In this document: positions 32,781 through 48,508 of the stretch, piece after piece
Position numbering within the stretch: the stretch's first letter is position 1
Layout: the number at the start of each line of letters is the position of its first letter
Assembly: GCF_016793225.1 (NCBI RefSeq)
Contig: NZ_JAEUMN010000081.1
Location: forward strand, 2,001-66,000
Length of the DNA: 64,000 nt
Direction: 5' to 3'
Source: Phenylobacterium sp.
GTDB lineage: Bacteria; Pseudomonadota; Alphaproteobacteria; Caulobacterales; Caulobacteraceae
Notes under the pieces: generated by a model
Database searches by the model: none
Seen by the model: the letters and a program-made list of their open reading frames with translations, nothing else
Told to the model about the DNA's origin: nothing
Program-made: the position numbers and the translations under genes

Positions 32781-33494
32781 TCAGCCGATGTCGCCGGCGC
32801 TGATGTCAGCCAGCGTTCGCCCGACGAGGATCACGGCGGACTCGACGTGGTGCTCGCCGAGTTCGGTCGCGAAGACGATGACGTCCGCCCCGACCTGGAC
32901 GGCGACATAGTCGGCGCCGGCCGCCATCCGGGCGTTCGCCGCCGCGAGGGCGGCGTCGTAGTCGGCCGCCGCGCCTGTGGCGAAGTTGGCCGCCGTGGCG
33001 GTGAGACCGTCGTCGTCGAAGACCAGCTTGTCCTCGCCGTGGGTGAAGTCGACGATGCGGTCCAGGCCCGCCAGCGCGCGCCCCCCGTCTCCGACCTTGA
33101 ACACGTCGGCGCCCGGGCCGCCGATCAGGCGGTCGGCCCCGTCGTCGCCGTCGAGCGTGTCGGCGCCGGCGCCGCCGTCGAGGGTGTCGTCGCCGTCATC
33201 GCCACGCAGCCGGTCGTCCGCGGCGGAGCCCGACAGGCTGTCGCTCCCGTCGCCGCCACGGAGGCGGGCCGCGTCGCCACCGCGGTCGTCGCCGGGGGGA
33301 TCGTCCGCGCCACGGCCGCCGCGGTCGTCTCCCGGCGGATCGTCGGCGCCCCGCCCGCGGCGATCGTCGCCCGCCGGATCGTCCGCGCCGCGCCGGCCGG
33401 TGTCGGCCGCCGTCGTCGTACGGTCGTCGGGCTGGGTGTCGTCCCGGCCACGGCCGCGACCGGAATCGTCGCCGGCTCTGTCTTTCTTAGCCAT
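32781..33494 (-). CDS. RTX-like calcium-binding protein with Asp/Arg/Gly-rich tandem repeats and T1SS-type C-terminal domain
   Basis: Start at MAKKDRAG (GAGGAA RBS). The upstream ATG at 33533 falls inside the promoter motif. GGxGxD nonapeptide run GGDGSDSLSGSAADDRLRGDDGDDTLDGGAGADTLDGDDGADRLIGGPGADVF. No N-terminal signal peptide. Confidence 0.75.
   Translation of the reverse strand: MAKKDRAGDDSGRGRGRDDTQPDDRTTTAADTGRRGADDPAGDDRRGRGADDPPGDDRGGRGADDPPGDDRGGDAARLRGGDGSDSLSGSAADDRLRGDDGDDTLDGGAGADTLDGDDGADRLIGGPGADVFKVGDGGRALAGLDRIVDFTHGEDKLVFDDDGLTATAANFATGAAADYDAALAAANARMAAGADYVAVQVGADVIVFATELGEHHVESAVILVGRTLADISAGDIG
33276..33392. repeat. Three imperfect 39-bp tandem repeats (encode RGADDP(A/P)GDDR(R/G)G x3)
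   Basis: Read directly from the DNA and the translation of the RTX-like gene. Confidence 0.7.
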
Positions 33495-33528
33495 CAGGCA
33501 TTCCTCACTGTGGAAGCCCCCACATGAG

Positions 33529-33557
33529 GACAACGGCGCCGCCGGCCGGTTTATTCC
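33529..33557 (-). promoter_or_regulatory. ECF-type promoter motif upstream of the RTX-like gene
   Basis: Minus strand GGAATAAaccggccggcggcgcCGTTGTC (spacer 15), ending 34 nt upstream of ATG 33494. One of four near-identical sites. Confidence 0.6.
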
Positions 33558-33560
33558 CGC

Positions 33561-34343
33561 CTAGAAGAACAGCGTCGCGGCGACCGCGACGGCGCCGTGG
33601 CCCTGGGCGGCGCCCAGGAGGTCGTCGTCGGGGCCGAAGTAGGTCGCCTGGCCCTGCAGTTCGACATTGCCGAAGCGTCGGGCAAGGCCTGCGCCCACGT
33701 CGTACTGCGTGCGCCGGATCTCGCTGCCGCGGCGACGGTCCACCGGAACCAGGAGGCCGGCGCGGCCGAAGGCCTTCCAGCCGGGCGCGGGCGTCACGGT
33801 CGCGGTCGTTGTGGCGTAGAGCGTGGCGGCCCGCTCGCCCAGGTAGTTGGGCGAGTAGTAGACGTGGGCGCTGAACCGGCGCGTCGAGACGCCCGCGTAG
33901 AGCTCGTTGTAGGCCACCGGGTACCGCGGCCGGTAGTATTCGGTCACGTCGGTGCGCGAGACGCCGACCTCCCAGCTGGAGTCGGCGTCGAAGCGGCGCG
34001 CATAGCCGGCATAGACCTGATAGCCCGAGACCTTCGGGCCGTCGTGGCGCGTCGCCGCCGCGATCACCGAGCCGGAGGCGTAGAGCCCGCTCTCATGATC
34101 CAGGCTGCCGGTGGCGACGAGGGCCGGTCGCTCGGCGCTGAGAGAGTACCCGCGATAGAGGTGATCGCTGACCGCCGACAGGCTGAACGTCGGCTGGGCG
34201 TGCGCGGGCGTCGCCGCCGCGCCCAGGACCGCGGCCGCAAGGGCGAGGAAAGCCCGGATTTCAGCGGCCGTTGTCGGGCGAGGCGCAGGCGCAGTTCGCC
34301 CGGGAGGCCACCCGCAGCAGGGAAGCGCAGGCGTCGATCTCAC
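33561..34343 (-). CDS. TorF-like small beta-barrel outer-membrane protein (start codon uncertain)
   Basis: Signal-like RAFLALAAAVLGAAATPAHA-QP, alternating beta-strand pattern, C-terminal ...VAATLFF. The only canonical in-frame start is GTG 34343, 27 codons upstream of the signal peptide. Confidence 0.6.
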   Translation of the reverse strand: MRSTPALPCCGWPPGRTAPAPRPTTAAEIRAFLALAAAVLGAAATPAHAQPTFSLSAVSDHLYRGYSLSAERPALVATGSLDHESGLYASGSVIAAATRHDGPKVSGYQVYAGYARRFDADSSWEVGVSRTDVTEYYRPRYPVAYNELYAGVSTRRFSAHVYYSPNYLGERAATLYATTTATVTPAPGWKAFGRAGLLVPVDRRRGSEIRRTQYDVGAGLARRFGNVELQGQATYFGPDDDLLGAAQGHGAVAVAATLFF

Positions 34344-35493
34344 CGCGCGCCCGCGACAGAAGGCGCGCGCGCGGCTGCGGACGGCGCTCGTCGACCAGGG
34401 CCAGGAGTCCGCTCACGTGGGCCGCGGCGTACGAACTTCCGTCGACCAGAAACCACCGTCCCCCCGGCTGAGTCGTGGGCACGTCGCGCCCGGGCGCACT
34501 GTAGACACCGGGGCGCGGGCTCGCCAATGCCTCGTCGGCCACGGCGACGACGCCCGTGTGGTTGGCCGGGAAACCGCCGTCGGGCAGGCCGCGGTCATAG
34601 GCGGCGACCACCTTGATGCCGCGCGAGATGGCCACATCGATCAGGCGGGCCAGCAGCGGATCGGGCGGCCCGCTGAGGCTGAGGTTGATGACCCGGGCCT
34701 TGGCGTCGATGGCGAAGTGCAGGGCCTGGGCGAGGCTGAGGCTGTCGCACACGGTGTCGCCGGCGCCCTTGCGGGGGGCGCCCTGCCAGCAGGCGCGGAG
34801 CCCCAGGATTCGGGCGCCCGGCGCCACGCCCACGATGCCGATCCCGTTGTCGCCCCGGGCCGCGATCACGCCGGCCACGCCGGTGCCGTGCGTCTCGGGC
34901 GCGGCCGGACGACCGGCGACGAAGTTCCGGGTGAGCTCGACCTGTCCGGCCAGGTCCGGGTGGGTGGGATCGACCATGCTGTCGACCACGGCGACCCGCA
35001 CCCCACGGCCGACGGCCAGTTCGTGCAGGGCGGCGAGACGCCACTCGCCCGCAGCCGGCTGGGCGGCGCGAAGCGGGTCGGCCGAGCGCGGCGCGCCCTG
35101 GGCATGGAACATCTGGCTCGGCTGGGCGTCCTGGACGGCGCTCTCGCGGGCGAGGAGCCGCGCGACCTCGACCGTGGAACGCCCGTCGGGAACGTTCATG
35201 ATGTAGCAGTCGACGCCGAGCAGCGGCATGGGCCAGCCGTCCACCAGCTCGAGGCCATGGGCGGCGGCCAGCTTCTGGGCGAGGCGGCGGCGCACGGCCT
35301 GGCCGGCCTCATCCCCGTAGCCGCCGCCGGCGGAGACGCCGGGGCGGGCATGGCCGGGCGGCATCCGCATCAGCACCAGCACCTGATGCGGGTCGGCCGC
35401 CGAAGCCGCCGGCGCGTCCATGGCGAACGCCAGCTCCGCCGGCGCGGCGAGCACGGCGAGCGCAAGCAACAGGGCTCGGAACTTGCGGATCAT
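34261..35493 (-). CDS. Secreted S8 (subtilisin-family) serine peptidase with N-terminal propeptide-like region
   Basis: Signal MIRKFRALLLALAVLAAPAELAFA. Catalytic D (VAVVDSMVD), H (HGTGVAGVIA), S (GSSYAAAHVSG). ATG overlaps the anti-sigma stop (ATGA). Confidence 0.9.
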   Translation of the reverse strand: MIRKFRALLLALAVLAAPAELAFAMDAPAASAADPHQVLVLMRMPPGHARPGVSAGGGYGDEAGQAVRRRLAQKLAAAHGLELVDGWPMPLLGVDCYIMNVPDGRSTVEVARLLARESAVQDAQPSQMFHAQGAPRSADPLRAAQPAAGEWRLAALHELAVGRGVRVAVVDSMVDPTHPDLAGQVELTRNFVAGRPAAPETHGTGVAGVIAARGDNGIGIVGVAPGARILGLRACWQGAPRKGAGDTVCDSLSLAQALHFAIDAKARVINLSLSGPPDPLLARLIDVAISRGIKVVAAYDRGLPDGGFPANHTGVVAVADEALASPRPGVYSAPGRDVPTTQPGGRWFLVDGSSYAAAHVSGLLALVDERRPQPRARLLSRARGEIDACASLLRVASRANCACASPDNGR

Positions 35494-36110
35494 GGGGCGT
35501 CCACCGGCTCGGCAAGGCTGACTTCGGGCCGCTGGCGAAGCTGCGGCAGGATGCGATCCCGGCTTGCGGCCGGCACCCGGACGAGCCAGGCGCCCGCGGC
35601 GTTCGGGCCGCCGACCACGCGCCCCTCGACCCCGGCGAGCGTGTCGCGCAGCTGGGCCTCGGTGGCGTTGGGCGCGAACATGATCATCACGTTGGGCGCG
35701 TCGGATCGGGCCGCGGACGACAGAGCCTTGTACTCGGCGTCCGACGCGCCGGTTTCGCGCGCGGGCGAAAGAACCACGACGGCGCCGGCGAGCAGGGCGG
35801 CCTGGGCGGCGAGGGCCGCGGCGACCCAGGCGCGGCGCGGGCGGACAGCCTGCCGGGCGCCGAGCGAGACGACATTGTCGCCGGCCGCGATCGCGCGGAT
35901 CCGCGCGGCCATCGCGTCGGGCGCGGGGCGATCGAGGAGCGCGTCGAAGGCGCCGCGCACGGCCCGGTCGCGCGCGGCCATCGCGTCGAGACGGACGCGG
36001 AGCGCGGCGTTCGACGCCAGCTCGGCCTCGATCTGGCGGGCGCGATCCGGGTCGGCTTCACCGTCCAGGTAGGCCATCAGGGCGTCGTCGGTGATCATCT
36101 CGGGTCCCAT
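35490..36110 (-). CDS. Putative anti-sigma factor (single TM, periplasmic C-terminal domain)
   Basis: N-terminus ITDDALMAYLDGEADPDRARQIEAELASN is the usual anti-sigma helix pattern (no Zn motif). TM WVAAALAAQAALLAGAVVVL. Divergent from the ECF sigma gene. Confidence 0.7.
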   Translation of the reverse strand: MGPEMITDDALMAYLDGEADPDRARQIEAELASNAALRVRLDAMAARDRAVRGAFDALLDRPAPDAMAARIRAIAAGDNVVSLGARQAVRPRRAWVAAALAAQAALLAGAVVVLSPARETGASDAEYKALSSAARSDAPNVMIMFAPNATEAQLRDTLAGVEGRVVGGPNAAGAWLVRVPAASRDRILPQLRQRPEVSLAEPVDAP

Positions 36111-36138: not shown

Positions 36139-36166
36139 GACAACGACGCCACCGCAGATTTATTCC
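36139..36166 (-). promoter_or_regulatory. ECF-type promoter motif upstream of the anti-sigma/S8/porin operon
   Basis: Minus strand GGAATAAatctgcggtggcgtCGTTGTC (spacer 14), ending 28 nt upstream of ATG 36110. Confidence 0.6.
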
Positions 36167-36184: not shown

Positions 36185-36802
36185 TTGGATCCTGGCTCGC
36201 GCGTTGATGCGGCGCAAGGCGAGCGCTATCCAGCCTGGGCAGACAGGTGGGCGAGGGACTGCGGATCGCCCGCCTTTTTCGAGAGCGCCTTGGCCGGACG
36301 GGCTGATATCGCCGAGCGGATCGTGGAGCTTCTGCCGCGCCTGCGGCGCTTCGCGCTGACGCTGACGCGCCGGGAGCATGACGCCGACGACCTGGTTCAG
36401 GGGACGGTGGAGCGCGCCCTGGGCCGGCTCGACAGCTGGAAGCCCGACACGCGCCTGGACAGCTGGCTCTTCAAGATCATGCAGAACCACTGGATCGACC
36501 AGGTGCGCGCGCAGCGGCTGCGCGGCGCGTCGGAGGGGTTGGACGCCGCCGACGAGGTCGCGGGCTCTGACGGGCGGCATGTGACCGGCGTGCGGCGTGA
36601 ACTGCAGGCCACGCTCGAGGCCGTGCTGCGCCTGCCGGAAGAGCAGCGCGCCGTGGTGGGTCTGGTGCTGGTGGAAGGGCTGGCCTACCGCGAGGCGGCC
36701 GAGATCCTCGCGGTGCCGATCGGCACGGTCATGAGTCGGCTGTCGCGCGCCCGCGCGGCGCTGGAGCTGGCGCTCGAGGGCGCGCCCGAGCCCAGGTCCT
36801 GA
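36185..36802 (+). CDS. ECF (group IV) RNA polymerase sigma factor
   Basis: Region 2 DADDLVQGTVERAL...WLFKIMQNHWIDQVR and region 4 LPEEQRAVVGLVLVEGLAYREAAEILAVPIGTVMSRLSRAR. The true start is probably the in-frame TTG at 36290 (170 aa). Confidence 0.9.
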   Translation: MDPGSRVDAAQGERYPAWADRWARDCGSPAFFESALAGRADIAERIVELLPRLRRFALTLTRREHDADDLVQGTVERALGRLDSWKPDTRLDSWLFKIMQNHWIDQVRAQRLRGASEGLDAADEVAGSDGRHVTGVRRELQATLEAVLRLPEEQRAVVGLVLVEGLAYREAAEILAVPIGTVMSRLSRARAALELALEGAPEPRS

Positions 36803-36831: not shown

Positions 36832-38991
36832 CTATGGATGTGCGACGACGACCAGGGTGTTGGTCCGGCGCGACGCCGTCGCCAGGCAGGTCCTGAGCGT
36901 TTCGGGGTCGAGCGCGGCGAAGCTCTCGTCCAGGATCGTGAGGTCGGCGCCCTGGAGCAGCGCGCGGGCCAGGAAGACGCGGCTGCGCTCGCCGTGCGAC
37001 AGCTGCCAGCCGGTCTCGCCCACGGGCTGGTGCAGCCCCGCCGGCATGCGATCGATGAGCGCCCCAAGGTCCAGCTCGCGGCAGAGCGCTTCCGCCTCCG
37101 CAAGGTCTTCGGCCGTGGCCGGCCACCGACGGCCCATCAGCAGGTTGAAGGCCAGCGAGCCCGACAGCAGGTGATTGTCGTTGAACTGCGGGGCGGCCGT
37201 GGCGCCTCGGCGCCAGGCGGCGCCCAGCGTGTGGTGGTCGAGCCCGTTCAGGCTGAGCGCGCCACGGGTCGGCTTGCGCAGACCCGACAGCAGCGCCGTC
37301 AGGGTCGACTTGCCGCCGCCCGAGCCGCCCTCGAGGAGGACGCGATCGCCGGCGTGAAGCGTGAGGTCCACTCCGGCGAGCACCGGCGCGTCCTTCGCGT
37401 AGGCGTAGGCGAGCCCACGGGCTCTGAGAACGGCTCCGCCGGAACGGCGATCCGTCGGCGAAAGGTCCAGGGGCTCGGGTTCAGGGCAGGCGTCGCCGCG
37501 CGCGAGGTCGGCAACCTGGGTCCAGGCGATCCCGGCCCGCGACAGCCCCGCCAGACCGGTCACGAGGCCGAAGAGCCCGCGTTGCGCCAACAGGACGCCG
37601 CCAAGGCTGATCGCGAGCGCGGCCGGCGTCGGCGGGTGCGGGCCCGCGAAGGCGGGGGCAAGCCCCGCGACGCCCGCCACGAGCCAGGCGGTGGGCAGGA
37701 CAGCAAGAAGCGACATCGCCGCCCGGTCGAAGAGCCCGGACTCGGCGAGGTAGGCCCGCAGGTCAGCGTCCTCCGCGGCGTCCCGGCGCGTCGGCCGCTC
37801 CTGGGCCAGGCGGGTCCGGTGGCCGACCATGGCCTCGATCATGCGCTGGCTCAGCGCCAGCCGGCGAAGCGTCCACGACCGCATCCGCCGATGGAACCGA
37901 TGACCCAGCACGGCCAGCGCGGCCGCGAACCCCGCGAGCAGCGCCAGGTGCCAGCCGGCCGCCGCCCCCGCGGCGAGGGCCAGGGCGGCGAAGGCCAGTT
38001 CGAGTACGGCGATCAGGGCCGCGAGGCCGCCGTTGAGCGCCAGGCTTTCCAGCGCCTGGCTTTCCATCACGCGGCCGATCACCTGGCCGAAGCCCTGGCG
38101 ACCGACGGCGTCGGGGTCGGCCTTAAGCGCGCCTGCAAGCAGTCGCGCCTTCAGCCGGCGACCGAGATCGACGGCGATCCGCGCCTCCAGGGCGCCCCCG
38201 GCGAACCGCAGCGGAACCAGGGTGGCGAGGAGCAGCAGCCAGGCCGTGAACCAGCCGAAGTCGAGGCGACCGTCCAGGACCGAGCGCCCGATGAGCGACC
38301 AGCCGAGCATCTCGGCGGCGTAGAGCAGTCCGAAGATCCCGAGGGCGGCGGCGGCGATCCAGGGCAGCTTCATCTGCAGGGCCTGCCGCCCCATGGAGGC
38401 GCCGGCCGGTTCGCGCAGCAGCCAAACGCCGCCCACGCGTTCCGACGCGAGCCGGTCGGCCATGAGCGCGCGGCCTACGTCGCGGCGCCGGCGGCCCGTG
38501 AGCCCGGCGTCGTCGAGGATCGGCGCGATGCGGGGAGCCAGACCGCCCTCGATCGACCAGCAGAGGCAGGCGCGCAGCGCCTCGACGGGGCAGCCCGAGA
38601 CCGCGAGGTCCGGTCCGAGCACCCGAAGCGTCCGGCCGCTGGCGCCGAGGAGCAGGACGAACCCCATCTCGCGGCCCTGGCGAACCAGCGCGATCGCGGG
38701 GGCCGCCTGCCGCAGCATGTCGGCGACGGCGCCCGCGGGGACGTCGACGGGCTCGGCCTCGAGCCCCAGGGCGCCCGCGGCGACCGGCAGGAGAGCCTCG
38801 GGATCCTCGCCGCAAGCCTGCGACGCCATGAACTGGGAGTCGGTGCGCGCGACGCCCGAGCGACGCGCCAGCTCGGCCAGGCCCTCCCCCAGACGGTCGA
38901 TCGGCCACCAGACCGCGCCGACGGCGGCTGCGGCCTCCGCGTCCAGCGGCGCGGCGGCGAGATACCGGCCCTTGGGCGCGCCCTGGGTCAT
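36832..38991 (-). CDS. ABC exporter (TMD+NBD) with degenerate N-terminal C39-like domain
   Basis: ATG 38991 overlaps the upstream stop (ATGA). Walker A GGSGGGKST, signature LSHGERSRV, Walker B LTILDESF. In the N-terminal roughly 200 aa the peptidase His position reads GFVLLLG where the partner has HFVVVW (by-eye alignment). Confidence 0.85.
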   Translation of the reverse strand: MTQGAPKGRYLAAAPLDAEAAAAVGAVWWPIDRLGEGLAELARRSGVARTDSQFMASQACGEDPEALLPVAAGALGLEAEPVDVPAGAVADMLRQAAPAIALVRQGREMGFVLLLGASGRTLRVLGPDLAVSGCPVEALRACLCWSIEGGLAPRIAPILDDAGLTGRRRRDVGRALMADRLASERVGGVWLLREPAGASMGRQALQMKLPWIAAAALGIFGLLYAAEMLGWSLIGRSVLDGRLDFGWFTAWLLLLATLVPLRFAGGALEARIAVDLGRRLKARLLAGALKADPDAVGRQGFGQVIGRVMESQALESLALNGGLAALIAVLELAFAALALAAGAAAGWHLALLAGFAAALAVLGHRFHRRMRSWTLRRLALSQRMIEAMVGHRTRLAQERPTRRDAAEDADLRAYLAESGLFDRAAMSLLAVLPTAWLVAGVAGLAPAFAGPHPPTPAALAISLGGVLLAQRGLFGLVTGLAGLSRAGIAWTQVADLARGDACPEPEPLDLSPTDRRSGGAVLRARGLAYAYAKDAPVLAGVDLTLHAGDRVLLEGGSGGGKSTLTALLSGLRKPTRGALSLNGLDHHTLGAAWRRGATAAPQFNDNHLLSGSLAFNLLMGRRWPATAEDLAEAEALCRELDLGALIDRMPAGLHQPVGETGWQLSHGERSRVFLARALLQGADLTILDESFAALDPETLRTCLATASRRTNTLVVVAHP

Positions 38992-41636
38992 GCGGCCTCC
39001 GTGAGCGCGCCGCGCTCCAGCCTCAACCGCCGCCAGTTCGAGCCGCCCCAGACCCCCGCGCGCACCTCCCGCTCGGCGGTCAGAAGGCGCGCGTAGCGAC
39101 TGTTGGCTTCGACGAGCCGGGCCGGCGCGCCGTCCTCGACGATGCGGCCGTTCTCGACGACGAGAACCCGGGGGAAGTCGAGGGTCTCCTCGATGTCGTG
39201 GGTGACGCAGAGCAGCGTGGTTCCCGCCCACCAGGCGCGGGCCTCGCCGAGCAGCGCCTGGCGTTGACCGCGGTCGAGGCCGCGGAATGGCTCGTCCAGC
39301 AGCACCAGCCGCGGCGCATCGACCAGGAGCGCGCGCGCCAGTCGCACGCGCTGACCCTCGCCGCCCGAGAGGCGGCCGCCGCCTTCGCCGATGACGGTCC
39401 GCAGGCCCTCGGGCAGGCGCTCGGCGATATCGCGCAGCCGCGCGGCGTCGATCGCCCCAGCGAGCCGTTCCGGCGTCTCGCGCTCGTTGGCGTAGGCGAG
39501 GTTCGCCGCCAGCGAGGTGTTCCAGAGCTGCACGGATGGATCCACCCAGGCGGTCCGGCGGCGCAGCGCCTGCAGTCCGCCGGGCGGCGCCGGGAACCCG
39601 TCGATCCGCAGCTCGCCGTCGGACAGCCGGTTCCAGCCCATCAGAACACCCACCAGACTGGACTTGCCGGCGCCGGACGGCCCCACCACGGCGAGATGCT
39701 CGCCGGGCGCGATGTCGAGCTCGACGTCCTCGAGGATGCGGTGGCCGCCGGCCATCACCGCGCCGCCGCGGATCGTCAGGGACGCCGCGGCCTCTGGAAC
39801 AGGCTCCTCGCTCGCTTCGGGTTCATCGGGCGCGGCGAGGGGCTCCATCAGGCGCGCAAGGGTGTTGCGCTGGGCCGGGATCTGCCGGCCGAGAGCATTC
39901 AGCTGAGCGCCCAGCGCGGGAACCTTCAGCGCCCAGTAGACCAGCAGCAGGTCGCCGCCCTGGACGCCGCCCGCGCGCTGGAAGTGCAGGCCGAGGAACA
40001 GGCCCACGGCGGCGATGCATGCCATCGCCTGGACCGCCTGGGCCGCAAGGCCGAAACGCAGCAGGCCGCCGTAGGTCCGGGCCCACTCCACGAGCAGGTG
40101 CTCGTGCTGTCGCTGCACGCTGGTTTCGGCGGCGTGAGCGCGGATCGGCGCGAGTCCCAGCAGCGCGTCGAGGTAGAAGACGCCCAGAGCCGCCCCGTGG
40201 GTGCGCATGCGCAGATCGCGCTCGGCGAGCTGGGTCTGGATCAGCGCCGGCGTTCCGGCCGCCACCAGGGCCAGCAGCAGACCCGCCCACCACGCCTGAG
40301 GCGCCAGGGCCGCCAGCGCGGCCGTTGTGAACAGCAGTTCCAGGCCGTTCTGGAAGAGTTGCAGCGCGATGCCGGGGGCGCCGCGCGTCAGATGCAGGGC
40401 GTGGGCGCGGTCGGCCATGTCGCTGACGGATCGGCTCCGGAAGTAGCGGTCGCCGAGCCGGGGCAGCTTCGCGGCCAGCCGCATCCGCAGCGCCATCTCG
40501 AGCCGCCGCCCCAGGCGCAGGGCCTCGGCGCCCATGGGGATGTGCAGCGTCAGCAGCGCCGCCAGGAAGACGATCAGAAGGCCCGCCGCCGCCCACCGCT
40601 GCGCGGGCAGCGCCAATCGTTCACCGATGTCGAACAGGCCGCGGAACAGCAGCGTCTCGAGGATCACCGCGGCGACGGCCGCCACCGCCGCGAGGCCGAG
40701 CGCCAGGAGACCCAGGCGGCCCTCGGCCCTGAGCAGGTCGAACGCCGTGCGCAGAGGGCGGGGCCGCGGCTCGGCCAGGGCCGCGGCCACGTCGACGGGC
40801 GCCTCGACCGCGTCGGTCATGGGGGCGCTTCGCCCGCGGACGCTCAGCAGCACGGCGCCCGAGAGCCGCACCGACTGGGGCCGGCCCGGCGTGTTGGCGG
40901 GGTCGGGCGTGACGCTCCAGTACGCCTCGGGAATGCGGGCATAGATGTCGTCGGCCGAGGCGAGCGTGGCGTCCACGAGAGCGTTCAGGAGCCGCGCCGC
41001 TTCCGCGCCGGGTCGCAGGCCCTTGGCTTCGACGAGGGCCGTCGCGAGGCGGACAGCGGCGTCCAGGACCGCGAAGGTCCACCAGCGGGGATCCGCCTCG
41101 GCGCGGCTCAGGAGGTTGCGCGCGACGGACCGGCCGACGCTAAGGGCTTCGAGGCGCACGCCGAGCGGCGCCAGGAAGGCGTCCGTGCCCGCCCAGGCGC
41201 GCCAATCGGCGGCGGCGACTGTCGTGCTGTGCCTGTAGACTTCGTCGCGGAAGCGGGCGGCCCGGACCCAGCGGCGGCCGACGGCCGGGTCCATGACCTG
41301 CAGCCATGGCCCCACGCGCGACCACACCACGACGAAATGGCGCGCGGTCTCGGCATGGCGGACCACCACGATGGCCGGCAGAGCTCGGCTCTGCGGCAGG
41401 TCGAGGTGATCGATCGGAATCAGAACCTGCTCGGCGTCCAGGCCCAGTTGCACGGCGACGGTCTCGAGCGCGTCGATGGACGCGCCGTCCACGTCGATCT
41501 GGCAGGCCTCGCGGAGACGTCCGTAGCTGACCTGCAGCCCGTGCCCCCCGGCCAGGCACGCCAGGGCGGCCGGGCCGCAGTCCATGGCCGAGGTCTGGAC
41601 GACCTCCGGGGCGAACCGGCGCGCGGACCGCGTCAT
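38988..41636 (-). CDS. Peptidase-C39-domain ABC exporter (bacteriocin/double-glycine-leader type)
   Basis: ATG 41636 overlaps the HlyD stop (ATGA). C39 motifs VVQTSAMDCGPAALACL (Gln/Cys), ARHFVVVW (His), VMDPAVG (Asp). Walker A GPSGAGKSS, LSGGEGQRV, LVLLDEPF. The 1386-aa track ORF is an artefactual extension. Confidence 0.9.
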   Translation of the reverse strand: MTRSARRFAPEVVQTSAMDCGPAALACLAGGHGLQVSYGRLREACQIDVDGASIDALETVAVQLGLDAEQVLIPIDHLDLPQSRALPAIVVVRHAETARHFVVVWSRVGPWLQVMDPAVGRRWVRAARFRDEVYRHSTTVAAADWRAWAGTDAFLAPLGVRLEALSVGRSVARNLLSRAEADPRWWTFAVLDAAVRLATALVEAKGLRPGAEAARLLNALVDATLASADDIYARIPEAYWSVTPDPANTPGRPQSVRLSGAVLLSVRGRSAPMTDAVEAPVDVAAALAEPRPRPLRTAFDLLRAEGRLGLLALGLAAVAAVAAVILETLLFRGLFDIGERLALPAQRWAAAGLLIVFLAALLTLHIPMGAEALRLGRRLEMALRMRLAAKLPRLGDRYFRSRSVSDMADRAHALHLTRGAPGIALQLFQNGLELLFTTAALAALAPQAWWAGLLLALVAAGTPALIQTQLAERDLRMRTHGAALGVFYLDALLGLAPIRAHAAETSVQRQHEHLLVEWARTYGGLLRFGLAAQAVQAMACIAAVGLFLGLHFQRAGGVQGGDLLLVYWALKVPALGAQLNALGRQIPAQRNTLARLMEPLAAPDEPEASEEPVPEAAASLTIRGGAVMAGGHRILEDVELDIAPGEHLAVVGPSGAGKSSLVGVLMGWNRLSDGELRIDGFPAPPGGLQALRRRTAWVDPSVQLWNTSLAANLAYANERETPERLAGAIDAARLRDIAERLPEGLRTVIGEGGGRLSGGEGQRVRLARALLVDAPRLVLLDEPFRGLDRGQRQALLGEARAWWAGTTLLCVTHDIEETLDFPRVLVVENGRIVEDGAPARLVEANSRYARLLTAEREVRAGVWGGSNWRRLRLERGALTEAA

Positions 41637-42796
41637 GCCGCGCCGCCGGCGCCCAGGGCCTGGCCCGCGGCGCGGAGGACCAGCACGGCCGGGCTCACGC
41701 GTTCGACGGCGACCTCGGCGGCCCCCGCCATGCCGTGGCGCAGGGGAAGTCCGCCGCCCGTGGCGGGCGAGACCGACAGATCGGCCCGAAGCAACCCTCC
41801 GCGCGGTTCGCTGGCCACCCGCAGCACGCGGGCCGTGACGACGCCGTACTGGGCCCAGGGATAGCCGTCGAGGCGCAGGCGCGCGGTCTGCCCCGGGCGC
41901 ACGCGCCCCAGGGCCCCGCCCGACGGGAACTCGGCCACCAGCGTCAGGCGGCCGTCGGGGACGATGGTCGCCAGCTTCTGACCGGCCTCCACATAGGCCC
42001 CGGCGGCCAGGGTCGGGGCCTCGCCGATCACGCCATCGGCGGGAGCGCGCACCTGGCGCGCGTCGATGGCGGCGCGGAGGCGCTCGGCCGTGGCCCGGCT
42101 GGCCAGCAGGTCGCCCTGCATTCCCGCGATGGCCTGCCGCAGCGCCTGCAGGCGGGCCAGGCCGTCGCTCTGGCTGAGGCGTGCATCGTAGGCCGCCTTC
42201 TGGGCTTCGGCGGCGATGGCGTCGCGTGCGGAGCGGGCGCGCCGGGCGTCGGTCGCGTAGCGGTAGGCCTCGACATCCGAGAGGATGCCCCTGTCCAGCA
42301 GACCCCGCATTCTGCGGTCCTTCTCCTCGGCATAGTCGACCCCGGCGGCGGCCTCGCGCTCGCGGGCGCGGGCCGAGCGAAGGGCGGCGTCCGCCGCACC
42401 CCGATCGGCCGCCAGCGAGGCCTGCAGCGCCTGGGCCTCGGCCTCGGCCGCCGCGATCCGGGCCGGCAGCGCCTGCAGCCGCGCCTCGGCCTCGGCCAGG
42501 TCCAGCCGCGCCTGGGTGGCGTCGAGTTCGACCAGGACCTCGCCGGCGGTCACCCGGCGGCCGATCTGCAGCCGCGACGACACGAGACGTCCGGCCTCGA
42601 CGGGCGAGACATCCCGGGCGGCTACGACGGCTTCCAGGCGCGCGCGCCGCGAGACTTCGTAGAGGGTGACCCGCCCGAACACGAACCACGCCGTCCATGC
42701 GGCGAGCAGCACGCCGGCGCAGGCCAGCGCGAGGCGCGACGCCCGTCCCGTCTCGAGCGCCAGGGCGCGGGTGGTTCGGGAGAAAGGCGAGGCCAT
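41633..42796 (-). CDS. HlyD-family membrane fusion (secretion adaptor) protein
   Basis: Start moved to MASPFSR (ATG 42796, GGAG 10 nt upstream) because ATG 42832 lies inside the promoter -10 motif. One N-terminal TM, long coiled coil (ARLDLAEAEARLQAL...), C-terminal barrel. Confidence 0.85.
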   Translation of the reverse strand: MASPFSRTTRALALETGRASRLALACAGVLLAAWTAWFVFGRVTLYEVSRRARLEAVVAARDVSPVEAGRLVSSRLQIGRRVTAGEVLVELDATQARLDLAEAEARLQALPARIAAAEAEAQALQASLAADRGAADAALRSARAREREAAAGVDYAEEKDRRMRGLLDRGILSDVEAYRYATDARRARSARDAIAAEAQKAAYDARLSQSDGLARLQALRQAIAGMQGDLLASRATAERLRAAIDARQVRAPADGVIGEAPTLAAGAYVEAGQKLATIVPDGRLTLVAEFPSGGALGRVRPGQTARLRLDGYPWAQYGVVTARVLRVASEPRGGLLRADLSVSPATGGGLPLRHGMAGAAEVAVERVSPAVLVLRAAGQALGAGGAA

Positions 42797-42827: not shown

Positions 42828-42856
42828 GACAACGGCCGCGCGTTGACGATTATTCC
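42828..42856 (-). promoter_or_regulatory. ECF-type promoter motif upstream of the HlyD/ABC/ABC operon
   Basis: Minus strand GGAATAAtcgtcaacgcgcggcCGTTGTC (spacer 15), ending 31 nt upstream of ATG 42796. Confidence 0.6.
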
Positions 42857-42924: not shown

Positions 42925-42953
42925 GGAATAAGCGGCGGCGGCGCGACGTTGTC
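42925..42953 (+). promoter_or_regulatory. ECF-type promoter motif upstream of the 635-aa gene / peptide operon
   Basis: Plus strand GGAATAAgcggcggcggcgcgaCGTTGTC (spacer 15). ATG 42961 begins 7 nt after the motif, which implies a leaderless or near-leaderless mRNA. Confidence 0.6.
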
Positions 42954-42960
42954 CGACCGA

Positions 42961-44868
42961 ATGCCCGGAAGCGGCGCCATGGCGGCGGCGCTGGGCGGTT
43001 GGGGGACGATCCGCTTGCGCGACCTGGTCGACGCCGCCGCCTGTCCGCTGTCGCGGACCGAGGCCGACGGGCTGGATTTGCGTGCGGCGCTGGTGCTGCC
43101 GATGCGCCGCAGCATGGTCGTCCAGCGCGGCCTGAGCCCCGACGGCAAGCCGGAACTGACCCTGTTCCATGACGGCCGCGAGATCAGCTTCGACGAGCCG
43201 GAACTGTTCGGTTTCGCCGAGGCGCTGGCCCGGCAGGACAGGTTCCTGGCCGGCGAGGCGACGGGGTGGGGCGACGGTTACGCCTGGTCGCGCGTGGCGC
43301 CGCTGCTGACGGAGCTTGTGTCCGCCGGCGTCCTGATGCGCGCGGAGGCCGCCCCGGCCGCTTCCGTGGTTCCGGGCGTGCGCCCGTCGCCGCTGCCGCC
43401 CGCCCGCTCGGCCCGCGCCCGCTGGTGGGACGAGGGCGAGACCCTGATGGCCGAGCTGACCGGGCGGCCGCTCGAGACCGGCTGGCTCGAGATGGTGATC
43501 CCCGTCTTCCGCATCGCCCACGCGGCGCTCGACGCCGATGGCCGCCAGGTCGGCGAGGCGAACGTCTTTCCCCCGGCGCTGCGGATCGAGACGCCGACGC
43601 GGTGGCGCACCTGCCCGTACGAGGGTTCGCGCCATCAGCCCGACCGGCCGATGAACGTCGAGGCGCTTCGGGGCATGCAGGCGCACTGGAAGCAGATGAT
43701 GGCCGCGCTCGGCCGCATCCGCGCCGCCTGGCTGGCGCGGACGCCTGACGCTCAGGGCCGCGCGCTCACGATCGGCGAGATCGAACGCCTCGCGGTCTGC
43801 GTGCTGGGCGTGCCGACCTACGCCCTGGTCCGCGCCAGGGATCCGGTGGCCAGCGGTTCGCTGCATCCGACGCTTTCGTCGCTGTTCCGGGTCACCGACG
43901 GGCTGCGGATGGTCATGCACCAGATGCTGTTCGTGCCGCTGGGCGAGCCGACGCGGGATCCCGACGAGACCGTGAGCGCGGCCGACATCCACGCCTATGC
44001 CGAGCGGAGCTACGCGTTCCACTCCGAGCATGGCGTCTGCGCCGGGCCGCCGCACATGGTGGCGGAGTTCCTTCGTGTGATCGTCGAGGGCGAAGCGCCC
44101 GACCCCGATGCGGCCGCGCCGCTGGCCCCGGCCGTCGAGGCGGCCCTGGCCGACCTGCCGGCGGCGATGGACTACGCCATGCTGGGCCTGCAGGCGCACG
44201 CCGCGACCTTCTCGGTCTGGCCGGCCGCCGCGCGAGCCTATGCCGCGCTGGCCGACATACTGTCCGATAACGCCGACGCCGGTCTTGCCGCCCGCTTCAG
44301 GACCCACCTAGGCGCGCTTCGGACCGCCAGCTACCTCGGAGACGAGGCGCTGCGGGCCCGGCGCGAGGCGGTCTACGAAGAGATGCTCGACGCTTGCGGG
44401 CGGTGGCTGGGGCAAGCCCGGGACGCCTCGCGGATCGCCCGCGCCCGGCGTGACGCCCGGGCCAGGATGGCGGCGCAAGGCGACGCGGTGCGCGCCGTCC
44501 TGGCGGCGCGCCTAGGCCCGGCGGCGGCGGACGCGGCGGCCGAGGCCGTCCTCGACGCCTGCGCGGCCGCGATGGCGGCGATCTCGGTCGGTTCAGAGGC
44601 GCAGCGCGAGATCAACGCGCGCCTGGGGCGGCCGGCGCCGATCCGAAGCTTCGACGCCGCCGACCTCGACCTGCACAACCGGCTGAACGACCTGCAGCCC
44701 CGCCGGCTGCCCTACCTCTTCGACGAGCTCGCCGACGCGTTCGGGCTCGCGCTCACCCTTTCCGCCGACGGCCTCCGCCTGGCCGCGGCGAACCCCCATT
44801 CGGCGGCCACGCCGTCCGGATCGCGCGCAAACCCGCGCGCGTCACTCAACTCAGGAATGGCAAAATGA
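42961..44868 (+). CDS. Orphan 635-aa cytoplasmic protein, no family recognised (candidate peptide-modifying/recognition enzyme)
   Basis: Long ORF with high GC3 throughout. The TTG 42949 in the track lies inside the promoter motif, so ATG 42961 (or 42979) is preferred. No TM or signal. The N-terminal roughly 110 aa has a PqqD/RRE-like strand-strand-helix pattern (inference). Confidence 0.7.
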   Translation: MPGSGAMAAALGGWGTIRLRDLVDAAACPLSRTEADGLDLRAALVLPMRRSMVVQRGLSPDGKPELTLFHDGREISFDEPELFGFAEALARQDRFLAGEATGWGDGYAWSRVAPLLTELVSAGVLMRAEAAPAASVVPGVRPSPLPPARSARARWWDEGETLMAELTGRPLETGWLEMVIPVFRIAHAALDADGRQVGEANVFPPALRIETPTRWRTCPYEGSRHQPDRPMNVEALRGMQAHWKQMMAALGRIRAAWLARTPDAQGRALTIGEIERLAVCVLGVPTYALVRARDPVASGSLHPTLSSLFRVTDGLRMVMHQMLFVPLGEPTRDPDETVSAADIHAYAERSYAFHSEHGVCAGPPHMVAEFLRVIVEGEAPDPDAAAPLAPAVEAALADLPAAMDYAMLGLQAHAATFSVWPAAARAYAALADILSDNADAGLAARFRTHLGALRTASYLGDEALRARREAVYEEMLDACGRWLGQARDASRIARARRDARARMAAQGDAVRAVLAARLGPAAADAAAEAVLDACAAAMAAISVGSEAQREINARLGRPAPIRSFDAADLDLHNRLNDLQPRRLPYLFDELADAFGLALTLSADGLRLAAANPHSAATPSGSRANPRASLNSGMAK

Positions 44869-44978
44869 AGATCAAGACGAACATCCGCGCCGGCGCCGGC
44901 AAGCAGAAGCGCAAGAGCGGCGGTGAGTCCGAGGCCCCGGCCTACGTCCCGCCGGTGAGCCGCTGCGTCGGCATCTGA
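44865..44978 (+). CDS. 37-aa peptide MKIKTNIRAGAGKQKRKSGGESEAPAYVPPVSRCVGI (candidate Gly-Gly-leader precursor)
   Basis: Below the ORF-track size cutoff. ATG overlaps the TGA of the 635-aa gene (ATGA). AGGAA 7 nt upstream. 35 of 37 codons end in G/C. Followed by a hairpin. Internal GG (positions 19-20) matches C39 exporter specificity. Confidence 0.55.
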   Translation: MKIKTNIRAGAGKQKRKSGGESEAPAYVPPVSRCVGI

Positions 44979-44996
44979 GCCGCACGGCCAGACAGA

Positions 44997-45030
44997 GAGG
45001 GGGCCGGCCGCACGCCGGCCTCCTTCTTCG
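44997..45030 (+). terminator. Hairpin after the peptide gene (possible intrinsic terminator)
   Basis: 12-bp stem 44997-45008 / 45014-45025 (2 G-U pairs), loop cgcac, then a weak U-rich ccttcttc tail. Confidence 0.4.
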
Positions 45031-45328: not shown

Positions 45329-47689
<2,361 letters not shown>

Positions 47690-47752
47690 TCAGGCGGCGC
47701 CGTCACGGCGCGGACAGACCGGCGAGGGCGGGACCCTGGTCCCGCCCTTTGC

Positions 47753-48508
47753 GTGTCAGGCGCCTCGCCTGCCGGGGCGAAGACCGCTATGGCTGGCGGC
47801 ATGGGGAAGGGCCAGTCGCGAGCCGCCGCCGTCCTGCTCGGCCTCTCGGCGCTGGCCTGGGCCGGCGCGGCGATGGCGCACAACATCGGCGGGACCGACG
47901 CCGCCTTCGTGGCCGCCACGCGGGGCCCCGACCCGATCCCGTTCGCCTACCTCGGCGCCAAGCACATGGTGACGGGCTACGACCACCTGCTGTTCCTGGT
48001 GGGCGTCATCTTCTTCCTGTTCCGGCTGAAGGAGATCGCGCTCTATGTGAGCCTCTTCTCGCTGGGCCACTCGATCACGCTGCTGGCGGGCGTGCTGCTG
48101 AGGCTGGAGGTGGAGCCGCACCTCGTGGACGCGGTGATCGGGCTGTCCGTGGCCTACAAGGCCTTCGACAACCTCGGCGGCTTCCGGACGGTGTTCGGCC
48201 GCCAGCCGGACACGCGGATCGCCGTGCTGGGCTTCGGACTGATCCACGGCTTCGGCCTGGCCACCAAGCTGCAGGCGCTGAACCTCAACCCCGACGGTCT
48301 GGTCGTGAACCTGGTCGCGTTCAACATCGGCGTCGAGCTGGGCCAGATCGCGGCGCTGTCCCTCATCCTTGTGGCGATGACCTACTGGCGGCGCTCGAAG
48401 GCCTTCCGGCCGATGGCGGCCGGCGCCAACGTCCTCCTGATGCTGGCCGGGTTCGTGCTCGCCGGCGACCAGATCGCCGGCTTCATCCTCGACGGAGCGG
48501 TCTCATGA
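47753..48508 (+). CDS. HupE/UreJ-family (type 2) metal transporter
   Basis: Signal peptide ending in AMAH; GAKHMVTGYDHLLFLVGVIFF motif; 6 TM. Start uncertain (47753-47801). Confidence 0.7.
   Translation: MSGASPAGAKTAMAGGMGKGQSRAAAVLLGLSALAWAGAAMAHNIGGTDAAFVAATRGPDPIPFAYLGAKHMVTGYDHLLFLVGVIFFLFRLKEIALYVSLFSLGHSITLLAGVLLRLEVEPHLVDAVIGLSVAYKAFDNLGGFRTVFGRQPDTRIAVLGFGLIHGFGLATKLQALNLNPDGLVVNLVAFNIGVELGQIAALSLILVAMTYWRRSKAFRPMAAGANVLLMLAGFVLAGDQIAGFILDGAVS

Follow-up and report, generated by a model that had tools for sequence, protein, structure and literature searches.

The question raised by this locus is whether a short open reading frame (ORF) and the large uncharacterized protein encoded directly before it form one biosynthetic unit and, if so, of what kind. 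The locus lies in a 64,000-nucleotide stretch (the window) of a Phenylobacterium sp. contig (NZ_JAEUMN010000081.1, positions 2,001 to 66,000), in which a 635-residue protein, here called BIG (42961..44868, + strand), is followed by a 37-codon ORF and flanked by a divergently transcribed exporter operon. The evidence favored a cassette of the type that produces peptides made on the ribosome and then modified post-translationally (RiPPs), in which the 37-residue peptide would be the precursor, BIG its precursor-binding maturase, and the product a peptide that is modified and then secreted. The probability of this reading was estimated at roughly 60%, and it was considered about half as probable that the modified atom is a Cys.

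The 37-codon ORF (44865..44978, + strand) is a genuine conserved gene, with the direct translation MKIKTNIRAGAGKQKRKSGGESEAPAYVPPVSRCVGI. The signals for which it had been singled out in a preliminary description of this DNA were all in place: its ATG (44865-67) overlaps the upstream TGA (44866-68) as ATGA, an AGGAA ribosome-binding site (44853..44857, +) was read 7 nt 5' of the start, and an intrinsic terminator-like GC hairpin with a T-rich run (45006..45030, +) closes the BIG-peptide operon. The strong bias toward G or C at codon ends also stood, in a window of ∼71% G+C, with the count corrected from 35/37 to 36/37 codons. The exact peptide was missing from the NCBI annotation of the Phenylobacterium metagenome-assembled genome (MAG), a Logan assembly being its sole source, and its absence from that annotation fits the earlier remark that the gene track had missed it.

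That the short ORF is coding was borne out by its conservation. When short ORFs following BIG homologs were listed and then scanned with a pattern, a homologous peptide was found in 78 of 85 fetched loci, always on the BIG strand, and the loci lacking a match were truncated or carried a slightly variant peptide. Most peptide genes were located directly 3' of BIG, often with the ATGA overlap and often in 2 to 6 tandem copies. A profile of 30 peptides matched 804 clusters in the protein collection, all of them unnamed, and the conservation of the small ORF is far beyond chance. A search of the peptide against NCBIfam at E ≤1, NHLP and Nif11 leader models included, gave no match.

Comparison of 111 distinct peptides, 23 to 66 residues in length, yielded the N-terminal consensus M-K-[IV]-K-[TS]-N-[IVL]-R-A-G. 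The scan pattern demanded R-[AS]-G, and invariance at those three positions was thus partly built in; no alternative to R-A-G was seen in the unbiased ORF listing or in the peptide alignment, and the core was left unconstrained by the pattern. In the window, the conserved leader comprises the 10 residues MKIKTNIRAG (44865..44894, +), ending in the proposed C39 peptidase cleavage site, Ala9-Gly10. Ala-Gly occupied positions -2/-1 of the proposed cleavage point in 110 to 111 of the 111 peptides, with Ile, Val, or Leu at -4 and Lys at -7. Cleavage had previously been placed after Gly19-Gly20, but that pair was conserved neither among the peptides of the pattern scan nor in the alignment, and the conserved motif was instead Arg8-Ala9-Gly10, so that the leader would be just 10 residues long.

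The spacer following the leader was hypervariable and rich in Gly, Ser, Thr, Asn, and Lys, and was succeeded by a conserved core motif. All 111 peptides had at least one Cys in the core; Arg directly preceded 173 of the 180 core Cys residues, and Gly was present at +1 or +2 in 176 of the 180. In the window peptide the motif is Arg33-Cys34-Val35-Gly36 (44961..44972, +), the proposed modification site. The commonest core was (V)YVPPVSRC[VAT]G[ILYV], while sphingomonad peptides had ...VVYTRCAGY, the Steroidobacter peptide was minimal (MKVKTQVRAG-ILPPGSGGGRCGA), and Allosphingosinicella precursors carried 3 to 5 tandem (S/T)RCGG units. In a few gammaproteobacterial and Acetobacteraceae peptides, Arg-x3-Cys-(x)-Gly replaced the usual motif. 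Precursors from Rubrivivax, Roseateles, and Rhizobacter (L020, L021, L023, L029, L033, L058, and L061) had a second Arg-Cys motif adjoining the leader (RAG-xGGRC[AST]G) and, behind it, runs of 10 to 35 Gly; several of these poly-Gly ORFs stopped early, probably owing to assembly errors in the poly-G tract.

Two ideas about the core put forward from the single sequence gave way in the family comparison. The Ser of SRC had been taken as part of the site, yet S, T, G, N, A, and D all occur before the Arg; Ser is therefore not required, and a Ser-Cys pair or lanthionine-like linkage was rejected on this basis. The CVGI end had been likened to a CaaX box, but the Cys is followed by exactly three residues in just 65 of the 111 peptides, internal repeats occurring in others, which argues against a CaaX-type signal. 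CaaX-type processing was dropped in view of this variable spacing and of the lack of a prenyltransferase-like fold or DDxxD motif in BIG.

Export of the peptide was suggested by the divergent operon, which, as described earlier, encodes a C39-peptidase ATP-binding cassette (ABC) exporter. Its three genes are translationally coupled and specify an HlyD-family periplasmic adaptor (41633..42796, - strand; 387 aa from ATG 42796; Pfam HlyD_3, 1.6e-15), the C39-peptidase ABC exporter (38988..41636, -; 882 aa, its start overlapping the HlyD stop; Peptidase_C39, 4.8e-20, and ABC_tran), and a second ABC permease/ATPase without a peptidase domain (36832..38991, -; 719 aa from ATG 38991; ABC_tran). The C39 active site is intact, with the catalytic Cys and His present in the motifs MDCGPAAL and HFVVVW. 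The best NCBIfam match of the C39-ABC protein was NHLM_micro_ABC1, at 187 bits against a cutoff of 853. The best NCBIfam relatives of the adaptor included the NHLP secretion protein, far under the cutoff, and the second ABC protein was closest to CydC (131 bits), with NHLM_micro_ABC2 at 89 bits against a cutoff of 709, all far below the cutoff. Compared with NHLM_micro_ABC1, the C39-ABC protein has ∼160 to 180 extra residues between its peptidase and membrane domains (residues ∼135 to 315) with no Pfam match, and its homologs measure 882 to 971 aa versus ∼710.

The conservation of the window genes was assessed by tblastn of the window proteins against 80 fetched loci from Alpha-, Beta-, and Gammaproteobacteria, Vicinamibacterales, and one Planctomycetota MAG, with the exporter trio counted within 10 kb. 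HlyD and C39-ABC homologs were each detected in 64/80 loci and the second ABC in 61/80, and these counts are lower bounds because contig ends cut many loci. The association of short ORF, BIG, and C39 exporter, which the preliminary description had made a point to check, thus proved to be genetically locked across phyla. Cultured carriers include Ramlibacter alkalitolerans, R. monticola, Rhodoferax lacus, Steroidobacter gossypii, Sphingobium subterraneum, Novosphingobium piscinae, and Paracraurococcus ruber. Lautropia shared the layout of the window but had a TolC-like gene behind the peptide gene, and in Vicinamibacterales a single collinear operon held the genes for BIG, peptide, methyltransferase, HlyD, C39-ABC, and ABC. 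Clustering of the neighborhood ORFs revealed no further candidate modifying enzyme conserved with the peptide.

BIG itself matched, at 100% identity, a "hypothetical protein" from a Phenylobacterium MAG (P0001), for which the NCBI start is ATG 42979 (629 aa). With GGAAG 7 nt upstream, ATG 42979 is a better start than 42961, and the leaderless mRNA that had been supposed for the more upstream start is not required. BIG had also been called an orphan, but a word-indexed search returned 565 homologs and an exhaustive profile search 1011 representatives, 209 of them at <1e-30. These homologs, from Alpha-, Beta-, and Gammaproteobacteria and Acidobacteria, were unnamed throughout, and none had a Pfam domain. 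No meaningful match to BIG was obtained in Pfam (strict; E ≤5 on 26 members), NCBIfam, PADLOC, or PDB (single sequence and profile), the best match being a dGTPase-like chain at E = 0.57. The statement that BIG is without a recognizable RiPP-enzyme domain was upheld by blank Pfam and NCBIfam scans: no LanB/C/M, YcaO, radical SAM-SPASM, lasso B/C, or DUF692 domain from these collections was present in BIG or its conserved neighbors, nor did Foldseek give a structural match. Pfam, NCBIfam, PDB, and Rfam, current to 2025-2026, held no model for BIG or the peptide gene.

An AlphaFold model of BIG based on a 119-sequence alignment had a predicted local distance difference test score (pLDDT) of 89.2 and a predicted template modeling score of 0.89, and the fold is thus confidently predicted, without a known relative. 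Residues ∼40 to 125 (43078..43335, +) were predicted to form a winged-helix domain with the strand and helix order β-β-β-α-α-α, a topology like that of a RiPP recognition element (RRE). Residues ∼140 to 612 (43378..44796, +), the proposed catalytic domain of ∼470 residues, were modeled as almost wholly helical with a β-hairpin at the end, and bear the invariant polar residues. The model had no global Foldseek match in PDB or BFVD (best E, 0.1; template modeling [TM] score <0.2), and a second independent AlphaFold model, of a Sphingobium homolog, again gave no global match against PDB. Weak matches to isoprenyl-diphosphate synthases and transporters were dropped, their TM scores being <0.2.

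The sole high-probability Foldseek matches were local, spanning ∼95 columns of the N-terminal domain. Two were to RRE-bearing RiPP enzymes, namely, TigE (8vpo; probability, 0.91) and McbB of the microcin B17 synthetase (6gri; 0.72 and 0.84), and a third, MINA53 (0.92 and 0.94), was to a winged-helix domain only. The RRE of TigE comprises residues 3 to 85 and is a canonical β3α3 winged helix-turn-helix (PMC10878394). In TigE and McbB, the β3α3 RRE is placed at the N terminus of a larger enzyme, and the arrangement predicted for BIG is alike (local probability, 0.72 to 0.91). At its other end, BIG has a stretch (window 44797-44865; residues ∼613 to 635) corresponding to a disordered tail in which many homologs end, with the motif [HN]-S-x-G-x-V-P-x-(E/V)-x-R-A (examples, DPHSAGTVPAVSRA; window version, NPHSAATPSGSRA). 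The tail bears a loose likeness to YVPPVSRC of the precursor core, Ala replacing Cys, and, by analogy with TigE, may act as a pseudo-substrate or bind to the RRE.

A physical link between the two partners was seen in two lineages, in which BIG and the peptide are a single ORF: P0267 (Sphingobium subterraneum, annotated as such in RefSeq) and P0355. Both fusions were read through in frame without a stop, giving annotated proteins of 681 and 669 aa, and the Sphingobium fusion lies at 10001-12043 of L062. RRE-dependent RiPP enzymes hold the leader as an additional strand in the β3/α3 groove. The P0267 fusion was used as a natural tethered complex for AlphaFold, and the only strand predicted in the fused peptide was residues 627 to 629 (H-M-K), at the leader start.

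Among 119 BIG sequences ∼48% identical, 53 columns were invariant and included His, Cys, Asp, Glu, Asn, and ∼10 Arg. The main-clade invariants comprised E177, H187, D191, R195, E199, N201, C218, R224, N232, R310, D313, R316, H320, E329, R349, and C360. Conserved motifs were LE..P.FR.AH...D..GRQVGE.N.FP and W..C...G.R.....PMN, together with LHP.LS.LFRV.DG.R...HQ.LF.P.GE and YAERN..F.S..GVCAGP. Judged from this pattern, conservation in the helical domain is enzyme-like.

Two invariant Cys together with His and Asp would also suit a Cys/His peptidase or transpeptidase acting at the Arg-Cys bond, which would free a C-terminal follower or repeat units, or macrocyclize the peptide. The near-constant Arg before the core Cys (173/180) would then be P1-like, the tandem (S/T)RCGG units of Allosphingosinicella resemble multi-core precursors, and a fused RRE-protease architecture is found in lasso-peptide B proteins. 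The predicted fold, however, is all-helical and matched no papain, transglutaminase, or other peptidase fold; distant clades retain the Cys residues but have lost His187, His302, and His320; and proteolysis is already covered by the dedicated C39 peptidase, joined in some loci by an S8 protease. Such an activity was regarded as unlikely, and a maturase modifying the core at or near Arg-Cys-x-Gly was preferred.

Clades only ∼30% identical to BIG keep the exporter trio and the same leader type, whereas their cores and partners differ. Four such loci, L085, L086, L089, and L091, are those of P0208, P0213, P0214, and P0236. In L085, the precursor is MKVKSKVRAG/GQPRG (the slash marking the leader end) in two copies, and the BIG-like protein is fused C-terminally to DUF7059 and an NPPY methyltransferase; the same methyltransferase fusion occurs in L086, with MKVKTKTKAG/FGSQFRQ. 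L089 (MQVKTRVKAG/AGKTRDPDG) has an N-terminal GNAT fusion to the BIG-like protein, and in L091, where the peptide reads ...LKVRSTVKAG/GLKTCNHSRAVLS, a JmjC/cupin gene ends 3 nt before the BIG-like gene and a methyltransferase is also present. A YcaO fragment lay beside a BIG fusion in one distant locus, L088. Across the superfamily the BIG invariants were E177, D191, G194-R195-Q196, G198, C218, G222, R224, N232, R291, G314, and R557, with C360-x-G-P nearly so; His187, His302, and His320 are specific to the main clade.

The triad of leader, BIG, and exporter is thus the ancient defining unit, and its retention in distant clades is as expected if BIG reads the leader. Fusion or coupling to tailoring enzymes is the pattern expected of a leader-binding RiPP enzyme. 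The same observations could be accommodated if BIG were a non-catalytic leader-binding chaperone or export adaptor, keeping hold of the nascent peptide and passing it to the C39 exporter, and the secreted peptide unmodified, resembling a class II bacteriocin or pheromone, whose single Cys may simply form disulfide dimers. BIG has no known catalytic fold or cofactor motif, it always accompanies this exporter trio and leader whatever the core, the chemistry in distant clades seemingly comes from the fused or adjacent tailoring enzymes, and translational coupling would suit a 1:1 chaperone. On the other hand, a 470-residue domain with ∼50 invariants, many of them polar, is under tighter constraint than a scaffold needs, a strict Arg-Cys-x-Gly calls for a reader of the core besides the leader, and known C39 exporters recognize leaders without such a partner. 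A purely chaperoning BIG was consequently judged improbable, if slightly less so than the peptidase, and the RiPP-type cassette with BIG as maturase was retained.

Common control of the two divergent operons was supported by their promoters. As had been noted before, a shared motif precedes both: exact sites of the extracytoplasmic function (ECF) type, GGAATAA-N15-CGTT, were found ahead of the BIG-peptide operon (42925..42950, +) and of the divergent export operon (42831..42856, -). Further copies preceded an anti-sigma/S8-subtilase operon (36142..36166, -) and an RTX-repeat gene (33532..33557, -). The motif GGAATAA-N14/15-CGTT occurred 4 times in the window versus 0.00 expected (pattern GGAATAAN{13,16}CGTT, shuffles), and each of the 4 sites was at the 5' end of a cluster operon, with one on either side of the divergent intergenic region. 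The assignment follows the general shape of ECF promoters. An ECF sigma factor (36185..36802, +; Pfam Sigma70_r2, r4_2, ECF) is likely the regulator of the four promoters in this genome. The regulon also covers a zf-HC2 anti-sigma factor (35490-36110, -), an S8 subtilase (34261-35493, -), and a Gcw_chp protein. By analogy with LanP and CylA, this subtilase could act as the protease of a second processing step, trimming the peptide.

The RTX-repeat gene (32781-33533) bears on whether BIG and the peptide could be mere neighbors, with BIG an immunity, regulatory, or unrelated cytoplasmic protein and the exporter serving another substrate, such as the RTX-repeat protein. This protein has the same promoter motif, HlyD/ABC systems classically export RTX proteins, and no direct BIG-peptide contact was predicted by AlphaFold. 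Yet an RTX-gene homolog was found in 1/80 loci, against the near-universal association of peptide, BIG, and exporter; the C39 peptidase of the exporter is of the active type, which is lacking in RTX exporters with their HlyB-type C39-like domains; and an RRE-like domain in BIG, together with natural fusions of BIG to the peptide and to tailoring enzymes, speaks for a joint function. Coincidental proximity was hence given very little weight, well below that of either alternative above, in comparison with a maturase-precursor-exporter cassette.

Other genes of the window were less regularly conserved. S8 subtilase homologs were present in 14/80 loci and ECF sigma homologs in 11/80, the latter frequency marking an accessory gene. 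A TonB-dependent receptor and a HupE/UreJ_2 metal transporter, encoded directly after the peptide terminator (45329-48508, +), suggest metal uptake; with homologs in 3/80 and 1/80 loci, respectively, they are neighbors outside the module. A metallophore role for the peptide was rejected on these counts and on the absence of a TonB-receptor cluster from the neighborhood analysis.

All-against-all clustering of the neighborhood ORFs identified a TolC-like outer membrane factor (38 loci), a class I methyltransferase (∼27), a histidine kinase (19) with a sigma-54 response regulator (15), and a diheme peroxidase-like protein (8). Loci flanked by a kinase and response regulator include L001, L005, L009, L017, L022, L026-L028, L039, L041, L050, and L077, and a LuxR-type regulator flanked the module in 8 loci. 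These regulators fit a peptide-responsive autoregulation of the kind known from bacteriocin and pheromone systems. In other loci, sigma-54 and ECF promoters stood immediately 5' of the peptide gene in only 4 and 6 of 114, respectively. In gammaproteobacterial loci, a ∼45-nt two-hairpin element (GGCCAAC-ATGGG-GTTGGCC .. CGTGC-GATGG-GCACG) was located ∼30 to 75 nt 5' of each peptide ATG (L019, L025, L032, L038, L046, L053, L057, and L060; diverged in L036 and L040). It showed compensatory changes in four pairs, was absent from the window, and could be a 5' untranslated-region RNA or a palindromic operator. Rfam gave no match in the window region or in this upstream element of the related loci.

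Taken together, the following course of events is proposed. In this genome the ECF sigma factor would drive the two divergent operons, a role that two-component systems would take in other lineages. One operon would yield BIG and then, by translational coupling, the 37-residue precursor, whose leader, MKIKTNIRAG, would be bound by the RRE-like winged-helix domain of BIG. The helical domain would modify the core at or next to Arg-Cys-x-Gly, the Cys thiol being the likeliest site. Cleavage after Ala9-Gly10 by the C39 domain of the exporter would follow, and the product would be exported by the ABC pair and HlyD, with the TolC-like outer membrane factor encoded in many other genomes. Outside the cell, the Lys/Ser-rich spacer may be trimmed by the coregulated S8 subtilase, where one is present, in the way that CylA and LanP act on lanthipeptides.

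Several observations weigh against this scheme. BIG showed no recognizable cofactor- or nucleotide-binding motif; as the helical domain matches nothing, the term "enzyme" follows from the conservation pattern only. The Foldseek E values of the N-terminal domain were weak, at 0.8 to 1.6, despite the probabilities of 0.72 to 0.94. The preliminary description had likened the first ∼110 residues to a PqqD-like RRE, and this held at the level of the fold, through the β3α3 topology and the TigE and McbB matches, but not of the sequence: PqqD similarity was found neither by Pfam on 10 fragments, nor by profile against PDB, nor by hhalign against a PqqD sequence, and no Pfam model fits the domain. In the AlphaFold model of the P0267 fusion, the peptide was undocked and disordered (pLDDT, 25 to 42). 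The 10-residue Ala-Gly leader is far shorter than known double-glycine leaders. Finally, distant clades with Cys-less cores retain most BIG invariants, so that the chemistry may lack specificity for Cys or BIG may serve chiefly as a scaffold. Either the core chemistry differs between clades or it is not strictly Cys-directed, which limits the naming of Cys as the target.

With these points included, the most far-reaching form of the proposal was placed a little short of an even chance: that BIG is the founding member of a new enzyme superfamily whose fold is unlike solved structures, carrying out an undescribed modification at Arg-Cys-x-Gly in a new RiPP class with a 10-residue leader read by an RRE-like domain and a C39 exporter, the BIG scaffold being reused in sister clades with methyltransferase, acetyltransferase, and JmjC partners. 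If BIG is a maturase, the system would represent a new RiPP class whose enzyme has a new fold and whose peptide chemistry is probably new as well, and the class would be widespread in soil and freshwater Proteobacteria and Acidobacteria. It would have stayed hidden in >1000 genomes because neither gene is annotated and gene calls often miss the peptide; whole unannotated families can still be brought to light through their co-occurrence with peptidase-bearing ABC exporters. The strict Arg-Cys-x-Gly, in 1 to 5 copies per precursor, points to a defined reaction, and the product could be a bacteriocin, a signal (a kinase and response regulator being present in many loci), or a thiol-derived metal binder. 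A very short conserved leader would serve peptide engineering. The system is small (one enzyme, one peptide, one exporter) and occurs in cultured strains, which makes it directly testable.

How, then, does the cassette relate to known systems? The general trait of RiPP clusters, a short precursor with a conserved leader and a variable core beside processing genes, was present in 78/85 loci, and nothing relevant on the peptide motifs or on a cluster of this kind was returned by full-text searches of the literature. Methanobactin (MbnA with MbnBC) and other MNIO peptides are alike in having a short precursor with a basic leader, a Cys followed by small residues, and a leader-binding partner domain, as proposed for BIG; the TonB-dependent receptor and HupE/UreJ transporter genes just downstream in the window are a further resemblance, though homologs of these accompany the module in just 3 and 1 of 80 loci. 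DUF692/MNIO and MbnC genes, however, were not found here, BIG is predicted to be all-helical rather than a TIM barrel, and export would be by a C39-ABC protein instead of a MATE pump. Trifolitoxin is likewise a small proteobacterial RiPP with Arg, Gly, and Cys near its C terminus (core, DIGGSRQGCVA), and its RRE-bearing enzymes define the tiarins, characterized by the TfxB/TfxC flavin mononucleotide-dependent dehydrogenase pair and a conserved core Gln (bioRxiv 10.64898/2025.12.02.691738). A tiarin relationship was rejected, as the window cluster has no nitroreductase-type genes, the core motif is Arg-Cys-x-Gly, and leader and exporter differ.

With class II lanthipeptides, the cassette shares the combination of a C39 exporter and an S8 subtilase, here in one regulon, and a long dispensable spacer between the proposed C39 site and the core. 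Their leaders are removed in two steps, by the C39-ABC protein CylB and then the subtilase CylA, or LanP. The window cluster differs in lacking a lanthipeptide synthetase, and an S8 gene accompanied the module in 14/80 loci only. Classical double-glycine leaders measure ∼15 to 30 residues, end in GG, GA, or GS, and have conserved hydrophobic residues at -4, -7, and -12; the cognate C39 ABC exporter with catalytic Cys and His is present here as well.

The closest parallels were with two systems. The NHLP/Nif11 "NHLM" export set (TIGR03794 HlyD, TIGR03796 C39-ABC, and TIGR03797 ABC) has the same three-gene exporter architecture, and its precursors, as here, are often in tandem with a conserved leader and variable core. 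An NHLM model was the best match for ABC1 only, those for HlyD and ABC2 ranking lower down, and the scores were so far below the cutoffs (187 versus 853 bits; 39 versus 156) that the exporters are related to the NHLM set but not members of it. NHLP/Nif11 leaders are ∼70 to 80 residues long, compared with 10 here and without homology to them, and their partner is a LanM, cyclodehydratase, or radical SAM enzyme in place of BIG. RaxX/RaxST/RaxABC of Xanthomonas combines one modifying enzyme with a C39-peptidase ABC protein, an HlyD-type adaptor, and a TolC-type channel, the plan also proposed here of a one-enzyme, C39-exported proteobacterial RiPP. RaxST, though, is a sulfotransferase of known fold that acts on Tyr, whereas BIG has no known fold and the target motif would be Arg-Cys-x-Gly. 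The cassette therefore stands nearest to NHLP/Nif11 and RaxX-RaxST-RaxABC while belonging to no named class, and it is best read as a widespread, undescribed RiPP-type class with a new maturase family.

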